A DNA stretch of 25,045 nt, taken from assembly GCA_964510585.1 (NCBI GenBank), contig CAZECW010000101.1:1-25045 (forward strand). Direction: 5' to 3'. The notes beneath the pieces are model-generated. The model worked only from the letters and a program-made list of their open reading frames with translations, ran no database searches and was not told the DNA's origin. The DNA comes from an uncultured archaeon. GTDB lineage: Archaea > Asgardarchaeota > Jordiarchaeia > Jordiarchaeales > Jordiarchaeaceae. Shown here one piece after another: positions 23,970-25,045 of this stretch (its first letter is position 1; every line of letters starts with the position of its first letter). The translations under genes were made by a program, and so were the position numbers.

Positions 23970-24719
23970 GTGAAAACTGAGGAAAGCTTTCCCTGTTTTG
24001 AAGTTGAGGGACAAAAGATTCCCAGAATACTTCTGGGGAGCTCCCCCTTCCTAGGCGCAGGCCAATTTGGCGTAAAGGCTTACCAGTACTATAAGAAATT
24101 CTTTGAGAACCCTGAAAATATTACGGAGCTAGTAATAGAGTCCATAAAGCTTGGAGTGAGGGGTATCCAGCTCGTGGCGTATAGCGAAATTGCCCGAGCA
24201 GTAAAACAGGCACAAGTTGAAACTGGGGTGGAATTAACAGTTGTGGGCAGCTTGCCCTTTGATAGACCAGAAGAAGGACTAGATTGCCTGTGTGATTTAA
24301 ATACTAAAGCGGTTTTACTCCATGGGGAGGAAACGGATAGGCTTAACCTTAAGGTGTTAGATTCTTGGTTCAAAAGAATCAGAAAGGCGGGTTTCGTTCC
24401 GGGCGTTGCCACCCACAAACCGGACCTCACTCTACCTGTGATCCTAAAAAGTGAATTAGATTTTTCACTGGTATTAGTACCCTTCAATGCGGCCGGCTTC
24501 CTCATGGGAAAAAAAGAAACGGTTTACAATATAGTTTCAGAATGCGACAAATCATACATAGCTATGAAGCCCTTAGCCGCAGGACGCCTCAAACCCAAAG
24601 AGGCATTGGAATTCGTCTTTTCCTGTAGGGGTATAAAGTCTGCGGCGGTAGGCATAGCCACGCCAGAGGAAGCCAGGGAAACATTCTCCATAGCCAAAGA
24701 TATCCTCAAAAAAAATTAA
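23970..24719 (+). CDS. Aldo/keto reductase-like TIM-barrel protein (archaeal subfamily)
   Basis: Motifs IPRILLGSSPF, LGVRGIQ, LLHG, PGVATH, LVPFN..G and IAMKPLAAGRL. GTG start. Confidence 0.75.
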   Translation: MKTEESFPCFEVEGQKIPRILLGSSPFLGAGQFGVKAYQYYKKFFENPENITELVIESIKLGVRGIQLVAYSEIARAVKQAQVETGVELTVVGSLPFDRPEEGLDCLCDLNTKAVLLHGEETDRLNLKVLDSWFKRIRKAGFVPGVATHKPDLTLPVILKSELDFSLVLVPFNAAGFLMGKKETVYNIVSECDKSYIAMKPLAAGRLKPKEALEFVFSCRGIKSAAVGIATPEEARETFSIAKDILKKN

Positions 24720-24777
24720 CGTTAAATTTACGCTTGATTCTTATTTTCTTTAGGCTTTTCTTCTTTTATTTTTTGGA

Positions 24778-24955
24778 TTGACACTCTCCGCGACTAAAGT
24801 CGGGAGATTCTTGCTTCTGGCTCATCGGGAGCCTTCGAAGCAATGGGTGTGCCACCACCCAGTTAACACGCCCTTCCCTCAAAGGAAACGGCGTCTATGT
24901 TGGCACCCTCATGGGGGCTGAGTCTTGTTTAGCCCCTTAAAGCCCAAGCCAAACC
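24778..24955 (-). ncRNA. Predicted TnpB-type omegaRNA (reRNA) scaffold inside the mini-element; 5' end estimated from TATA spacing
   Basis: Consecutive stems at 24914-19/24931-36, 24868-77/24884-94, 24844-49/24856-61, 24811-17/24837-43 (with 24819-23/24829-33) and the right-end hairpin. A 5-bp pseudoknot can form between 24901-05 and loop 24850-54. The RNA ends at the transposon right end, as TnpB omegaRNAs do. Confidence 0.65.
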
Positions 24956-25045
24956 CTTCAGCTACCAACAACTATTTACATACCCTACTTTCAAATAAAC
25001 TTTTTTGGCGATTCATCCCCACGACTTGAAGTCGGGGGCTTTCTC
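24778..25045 (-). mobile_element. Non-autonomous IS200/IS605-family mini-element, copy 2 (complete right end; last ~11 nt of left end beyond the window; ~279 bp predicted)
   Basis: The right end on minus reads GAAT-CTCCCGACT-TT-AGTCG-C-GGAG-AGTG-TCAA, the IS608-type guide GAAT and cleavage site TCAA (24781-24778). The left-end hairpin CCCC-A-CGACT-TGA-AGTCG-GGGG followed by CTTT (AAAG on minus) is at the window end. There is no coding capacity. Confidence 0.88.

Follow-up and report, generated by a model that had tools for sequence, protein, structure and literature searches.

The window analyzed here is a 25,045-nt stretch that makes up the whole of contig C101 from a genome of the Asgard archaeal order Jordiarchaeales. 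Its last 268 nt hold no protein gene, and a reading made from the sequence alone took their minus strand for a mobile cassette that consists of a promoter and an omegaRNA, the guide RNA of TnpB nucleases. The question raised by this locus is whether such a segment is a transposable element that carries a guide RNA and no genes, and what that RNA would do if the transposase TnpA and the nuclease TnpB came from elsewhere.

Structure, copy number, and ends of the element

The segment at 24778–25045 (minus strand) is a copy, element positions 12–279, of an ORF-less IS200/IS605 miniature element (MITE) of ~279 bp. Its parts are listed in Table 1. The ~279-bp size proposed by the sequence-only reading describes the full-length element (271–280 bp), but in the window copy the contig end has removed the TTAC target together with the first 11 nt of the left end. 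The left-end hairpin, the right-end hairpin, and the TCAA recognized in that reading are all present on the minus strand, and the statement that the element has neither tnpA nor tnpB agrees with the absence of any ORF of note (none of ≥50 aa). Two TATA-like boxes were found, and the single box seen earlier is the second one, which varies between subfamilies. The proposed ~180 nt of stacked hairpins extends to ~190 nt. The last 192 nt folded as RNA of the minus strand reach −82.4 kcal/mol (z = −4.2), and the complementary plus strand of the same segment reaches −71.1 kcal/mol. An Rfam scan of 24000–25045 returned only a chance match to CrcZ (13 bits, E 0.5).

Table 1. Features of the MITE copies in the window (all on the minus strand)
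Feature	Position	Strand	Basis
Left-end subterminal hairpin, with AAAG at its foot (25039–25042)	hairpin 25016–25039	−	sequence
GAATCGCC, then A-run, then TTTATTTG	25006–24992	−	
A-rich BRE-like run and TATA-like box 1 TTTATTTG (box at 24992–24999)	24992–25006	−	alignment with C162, C7, and C169
TATA-like box 2 TATGTAAATA; most copies have TATATAAATA	24973–24982	−	varies between subfamilies
Mid region, or 5' leader	24900–24969	−	interior of ORF-less G038 and G004 elements is ~72% identical
omegaRNA-like scaffold: CAUAG, stem A, GUUAAC, stem B, stem C, GAAU, right-end hairpin, tail	24778–24908	−	R1 match
Stem A (ACGCC-G-UUUCC ... GGGAA-G-GGCGU)	24868–24894	−	compensatory relative to tnpB-linked GUGCC/GGCAC
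Stem B, with conserved hexaloop GUGGCA (24850–24855)	24844–24861	−	covarying stem, invariant loop
Stem C (UUGCUUC/GAAGCAA base and distal hairpin)	24811–24843	−	six pairs, all compensatory among relatives
Right-end subterminal hairpin (24785–24806), with GAAT at its foot (24807–24810)	24785–24810	−	97% identical to the right end behind the C8 tnpB
Tail GUGUCAA with TCAA cleavage site (24778–24781); candidate 3' strand of a pseudoknot	24778–24784	−	nearly invariant in 76 homologues
3' flank, the predicted omegaRNA guide of the window copy	24758–24777	−	adjoins TCAA; analogy with ISDra2 and Gst TnpB
Second copy of the same MITE, left 135 nt (1–135) and TTAC target (136–139)	1–139	−	other contig end

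The multicopy family anticipated by the sequence-only reading was found. In the genome (217 contigs, 3.78 Mb), 32 complete internal copies of 271–280 bp were counted; they are 83–97% identical to the window copy, and all but one are ≥89% identical. For 31 other complete copies, an identity of 91–97% was recorded. A pattern search of the genome located 83 left ends, every one preceded by TTAC, and 70 right ends with a flank, 67 of them of the MITE type. Insertion sites were counted as distinct right-end junctions, which number at least 67. Fragments of the element also lie at ~100 contig ends that stop 124–140 nt into it, showing that the repeat breaks the assembly. The 32 complete recurrences and the ~100 fragment-bearing contig ends place the element far beyond chance. 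That the sites are many and the copies 91–98% identical to one another points to recent spread. A DNA search of 40 related genomes found the 279-bp family in this genome only, and the sequencing runs listed with matching DNA are hot-spring metagenomes, with no RNA run among the matches listed. At the C38 locus, the Logan contigs of four runs contain no joint across the MITE and break at the repeat.

The boundaries were determined by aligning the copies with their flanks. Conserved sequence begins immediately after TTAC and stops immediately after TCAA, and the 3' flanks are unrelated between copies. All copies have subterminal imperfect hairpins at both ends and no terminal inverted repeats. 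In silico removal of two copies, with TTAC kept, restores two ORFs that are colinear across the junction with DUF5615/PIN-like and HEPN paralogues, which fixes the boundaries and indicates that the target is not duplicated. These data show that the element inserts 3' of TTAC, ends in TCAA, and makes no target duplication. In IS608 (ISHp608) of Helicobacter pylori, the TTAC target is matched with AAAG and the TCAA end with GAAT, again without target duplication. The same code is read here, with AAAG at the foot of the left hairpin and GAAT at the foot of the right hairpin. IS608 is an autonomous bacterial tnpA–tnpB element, whereas the element in the window is a 279-bp archaeal derivative.

Conserved structure of the right end

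Twelve C8-type sequences, either linked to tnpB or from MITEs, were taken from G000 (the genome of the window), G003, and G004 to build a covariance model, R1. R1 consists of stem A, stem B, stem C, and the right-end hairpin, with 29 pairs over 122 positions. It matches the window at 24778–24908 (minus strand) from position 1 to 122 of 122 with 89.4 bits (E 5e-22), and it has matches in 21 of the 61 genomes of the phylum sample. In the alignment of 39 R1 hits, 90.7% of the cells are paired compared to 42–51% with slid partners, 26 of the 29 pairs are changed on both sides, and the covariation score is 0.50 compared to ≤0.12. An independent set of loci was fetched from archaeal MAGs by protein similarity to the TnpB encoded on C81. 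The hosts are Jordarchaeia, other Asgard groups, Bathyarchaeia, Nitrososphaeria, Methanomethylicia, Archaeoglobi, and others. This set gave 37 R1 matches, nearly all at the 3' end of tnpB on the tnpB strand, with 93.0% of cells paired, compensatory changes in 25 of the 29 pairs, and a score of 0.52. Across both sets, the slid controls ranged from 42 to 57% paired with scores ≤0.12. Both alignments were fitted to R1, which favors pairing, but pairs as varied as those observed (one position, for example, has GC, CG, AU, and UA) are hard to obtain otherwise. These comparisons strongly support a predicted RNA structure that lies at tnpB 3' ends and is present from end to end in the right 131 nt of the MITE. 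The proposal that this part is an omegaRNA is supported by the comparison, in that all of R1 is matched and the structure it describes covaries and sits where tnpB genes end.

G-U pairs outnumber A-C mismatches by 52 to 23 in stems A–C, which fits an RNA transcribed as the minus strand. The right-end hairpin shows the reverse, and this hairpin also works as DNA. Individual copies in the family decay almost neutrally.

The pseudoknot of the sequence-only reading, which joined 24905–24901 to the loop at 24854–24850, is complementary in the window copy, but across relatives only 48.6% of its cells are paired, the same as in the slid controls. Pairing of this UGCCA with the stem B loop is possible in the 279-bp family only, and the candidate was rejected. 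In the minimum-energy fold, UGCCA pairs instead with the predicted 5' end of the RNA. A second candidate joins UGGCA of the stem B loop to UGUCA of the tail, directly before the guide, and 93.9% of its cells are paired compared to ≤65% in slid controls. Both segments are nearly invariant, and nearly all changes are one-sided (G-U to A-U or G-C), with one G-C case in L132. A loop–tail pseudoknot next to the guide is the better fit and is probable from these alignments. It would be the counterpart of the pseudoknot in the cryo-EM structure of the ISDra2 omegaRNA, where nucleotides −5 to −3 pair with a 5' segment (PMC10097598).

A separate ORF-less IS200/IS605-like element with different ends was observed in L051 (G038 C47, reverse strand, ~1361–1830) and in L078 and L079. 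Its interior is ~72% identical to the mid region and stem A of the MITE. Its stem B loop, GUGGAC, is complementary to a GUUCAC just after the right-end hairpin, and this pair would be a compensatory version of the loop–tail pseudoknot.

The predicted scaffold resembles the ISDra2 omegaRNA (PMC10097598) in its length (~116–125 nt), in ending at the right end of the element, in having several stems that include the right-end hairpin, in a guide (here predicted) taken from the flank, and in the placement of the last nucleotides before the guide in a pseudoknot, here a candidate. There is no detectable sequence similarity between the two. The target motif (TAM) is TTAC here and TTGAT in ISDra2, the candidate pseudoknot partner is the stem B loop, and the associated TnpBs have Gly at the position of the RuvC-II Glu.

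Autonomous relatives and related gene-less elements

Intact Y1 transposase genes (Pfam Y1_Tnp, E 1e-32 to 1e-37) are located on C162, C7, and C169. Each of these tnpA genes lies directly behind a left end that is 94–100% identical to that of the MITE and is followed by the start of a tnpB. MITE positions 7–56 are 100% identical to the end before the C162 tnpA, and the left ~85 nt of the MITE match the left end and the tnpA-upstream (BRE/TATA) region of the autonomous tnpA–tnpB elements. In those elements, the ~35 nt from the left hairpin to the tnpA start contain an A-run and TTTATAGG that align with the A-run and TTTATTTG of the MITE, which indicates that the MITE keeps the tnpA upstream region. 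Box 1 is kept in 76 of the 83 left ends, and box 2 varies between subfamilies.

The assembly contains the tnpB of the autonomous element only in part. The tnpB 3' ends on C8, C54, C152, and C45 carry a right end that is 97% identical to that of the MITE over the last 36 nt, and another complete tnpB is located on C81. The right 125 nt of the MITE are ~75% identical to the C8 type and include a relic of the sequence coding for the TnpB C terminus (...NWVMAHPLL, compared to NWAMAHPLE and NWVVAHPLL). The C81 scaffold differs in that its stem C has a 68-nt insertion. In stems A and B the MITE is like the C8 type, and its right end and the base of its stem C are like the C81 type. No direct parent, defined as a tnpB 3' end >90% identical to the MITE scaffold, was found in this assembly. 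Since the nearest scaffolds are only ~75% identical or differ by the 68-nt insertion, recognition of the MITE scaffold by a resident TnpB is putative.

The ~70-nt mid region lies between the TATA boxes and the scaffold and recurs in ORF-less elements with different ends (G038, another family). No conserved fold was seen by eye in its G004 and G038 relatives. The possibility that it is decayed tnpB coding DNA was rejected, as it aligns with ten tnpB 3' regions no better than shuffled sequences do. The sequence-only reading had derived the element from an internal deletion that fused the left-end promoter to the omegaRNA. The left part is homologous to the left end and tnpA-upstream promoter region of autonomous elements. 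A simple single deletion is not supported, given the intervening mid region and the lack of a >90% identical direct parent. A search for the parent had also been suggested, and it recovered tnpA and tnpB genes with matching ends in the genome, but no tnpB-linked scaffold of >90% identity.

The C81 locus has features of its own. One 557-aa frame (L031:573–2246, minus strand) joins a degenerate TnpA, in which YIQ replaces the HUH motif, to a complete TnpB, and it continues through the right-end hairpin to TCAA. This TnpB is 68–83% identical to TnpBs from Thermoproteota MAGs but shares only ~42% identity with the other TnpB of Jordarchaeia, a contrast that suggests transfer from one phylum to another. 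In the resident TnpBs and others of this group, such as L081:2178–3350 (G004 C141) and P0001, Gly occupies the expected position of the catalytic RuvC-II Glu (IVVGNL or IVLGRL). Altae-Tran et al. 2023 (PMC10691335) predict activity, by way of a relocated glutamate, for a large clade with Gly at this position, RIIr-5; the likeness of the resident TnpBs to this clade was judged by this one motif.

Other ORF-less elements with a full scaffold were found in related genomes. The G004 element is ~205 bp and has a C8-type scaffold, the G003 element has a C81-type left end and a long stem C, and the elements of G005 and G002 have the tail AUGUCAG. These families have a TATA box (GTTTAAATA, GTTTAAAC, or GTTTAATAA) that ends 23–29 nt before the ATAG motif of the scaffold. 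At this spacing, a transcript from an archaeal promoter would start at about ATAG. At least four MITE families in the genus, with different scaffold lineages, keep the whole ~120-nt scaffold, and none was found cut inside. TnpA needs only the subterminal hairpin and the flanking tetranucleotides, as established for IS608. That the whole scaffold is repeatedly retained behind a promoter, when TnpA needs only the ends, argues more strongly than anything else here for a role of the RNA in these elements. The comparison supports the reading of the MITE as a putative promoter joined to an omegaRNA, and it indicates that gene-less elements with a predicted guide RNA arose several times in the genus.

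Predicted function of the guide RNA

The element is a nonautonomous IS200/IS605 MITE or PATE that, on balance, probably borrows both its transposase and its RNA-guided nuclease and carries only the guide. TnpA (Y1) from the autonomous relatives in the same genome would move it in trans. The predicted cassette consists of the left end with the tnpA promoter region, the ~70-nt segment, and a complete TnpB omegaRNA scaffold of ~125 nt at the right end. We infer that transcription from the retained BRE/TATA would run through TCAA into the flank, so that the last 16–20 nt of the RNA are local flank. The scaffold would then be bound by a TnpB supplied in trans, with the resident TnpBs assigned by one motif to the clade that has Gly at the RuvC-II Glu position. 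After TnpA excises the MITE, the complex would cut the resealed donor site (TTAC and flank), and recombination with the sister chromosome would return the MITE to the site.

The guides were examined as 16-mers, and 64 of the 67 from MITEs have no second occurrence in the genome; one of the three repeated guides lacks a TAM. The predicted guides are local flanks, which fits self-retention (homing) by TnpB through cutting of the resealed donor site. The self-expanding guide library envisaged in the sequence-only reading finds no support, and guides drawn from local flanks are what a homing role predicts. The copies show no orientation bias toward neighboring or downstream genes (36 opposite, 26 same), and nothing pointed to a set of regulatory guides.

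For two MITE copies, the right flank is found again elsewhere, beginning exactly at TTAC. In one case (C12:8955 onward), the flank is the start of a small gene, and it recurs at C154:2119–2321 with 98% identity over 203 nt directly after TTAC, with unrelated DNA upstream. The would-be guide of this copy thus has a second perfect TAM-flanked target. The 49 nt to the right of another copy (C62:12659–12707) recur on C75 (minus strand, offset 15962), where they follow TTACAA and the DNA on both sides is unrelated.

The same features may have other explanations. It is possible, but rather unlikely, that the MITE is passive, with only its ends needed for TnpA and the scaffold left as a relic of the parent tnpB 3' end that yields no functional RNA. 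Within the family, rare substitutions (37 in 74 paired sites and 42 in 59 unpaired sites) are only mildly fewer in stems, a difference short of significance, and the cross-family covariation could stem from tnpB-bearing ancestors; both points favor this explanation. It is opposed by the intact state in the window copy of all motifs that are invariant in the clade (CAUAG, GUUAAC, the hexaloop GUGGCA, GAAU, and the tail UGUCAA), by the compensatory nature of the one shared variant pair in stem B (U-A to C-G), and by the persistence of all ~120 nt, with a TATA box 23–29 nt upstream, in each of the families of different scaffold lineages. The element could also be a mobile promoter, its main effect being outward transcription from the TATA boxes into a flanking gene. 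The retained promoter region does point to the right end and the flank, but the copies have no preferred orientation relative to downstream ORFs, some of them disrupt genes, and retention of the scaffold is left unexplained. We regard this possibility as very improbable.

Guides put to use by the host are the other alternative. Seventy or more guides would program TnpB or a nuclease-dead derivative against other loci for regulation, defense, or genome rearrangement. The number of guides, the second TTAC-flanked match of the C12 guide, and the Gly at the RuvC-II Glu position of the resident TnpBs are compatible with such a role. The uniqueness of nearly all guides to their own loci and the missing TAM at one of the three repeats argue against it, as does the absence of orientation bias; no TldR-like context was seen, and the Gly clade itself is predicted active via its relocated glutamate (PMC10691335). 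A regulatory role is accordingly highly unlikely. In a bolder version, the gene-less promoter-and-guide elements of Jordarchaeia, born repeatedly and outnumbering tnpB genes by >10:1, could, if active, direct TnpB through the 70+ guides to break paralogous TTAC sites, leading to gene conversion or rearrangement between paralogues. The start of the C12/C154 homology exactly at the TAM hints at this outcome, which we consider quite improbable.

The reading of the MITE as a guide-only element that homes with a borrowed TnpB has precedents. Meers et al. 2023 (10.1101/2023.03.14.532601) state that PATEs often encode omegaRNAs for use by TnpB in trans, and they describe a homing role of TnpB in which its cut at the donor site leads to restoration of the element by recombination. 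Mini-transposons that carry an omegaRNA are therefore already known from bacteria, and the novelty claimed in the sequence-only reading was too strong. The PATEs of Geobacillus stearothermophilus described by Meers et al. likewise have no protein genes, carry IS200/IS605 ends and an omegaRNA that needs a TnpB from elsewhere, and depend on TnpA in trans. The family described here differs in its Asgard archaeal host and its much larger size (at least 67 sites), and it is known from sequence alone. It also differs in having the tnpA promoter region directly before the scaffold, with the extra ~70-nt segment, and in the repeated births seen in genomes related to its host.

These findings describe an Asgard archaeon with a large, recently expanded family of mini-transposons made of two ends, a promoter region, and a predicted guide-RNA scaffold. 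The repeat accounts for the fragmented assembly, in which ~100 contig ends stop inside it. R1 provides a covariance model for a class of archaeal omegaRNAs that has no Rfam entry, and the family offers a natural system for testing the use of TnpB in trans. The data support the view that selection may act on the guide RNA of IS200/IS605 elements as a separate module.
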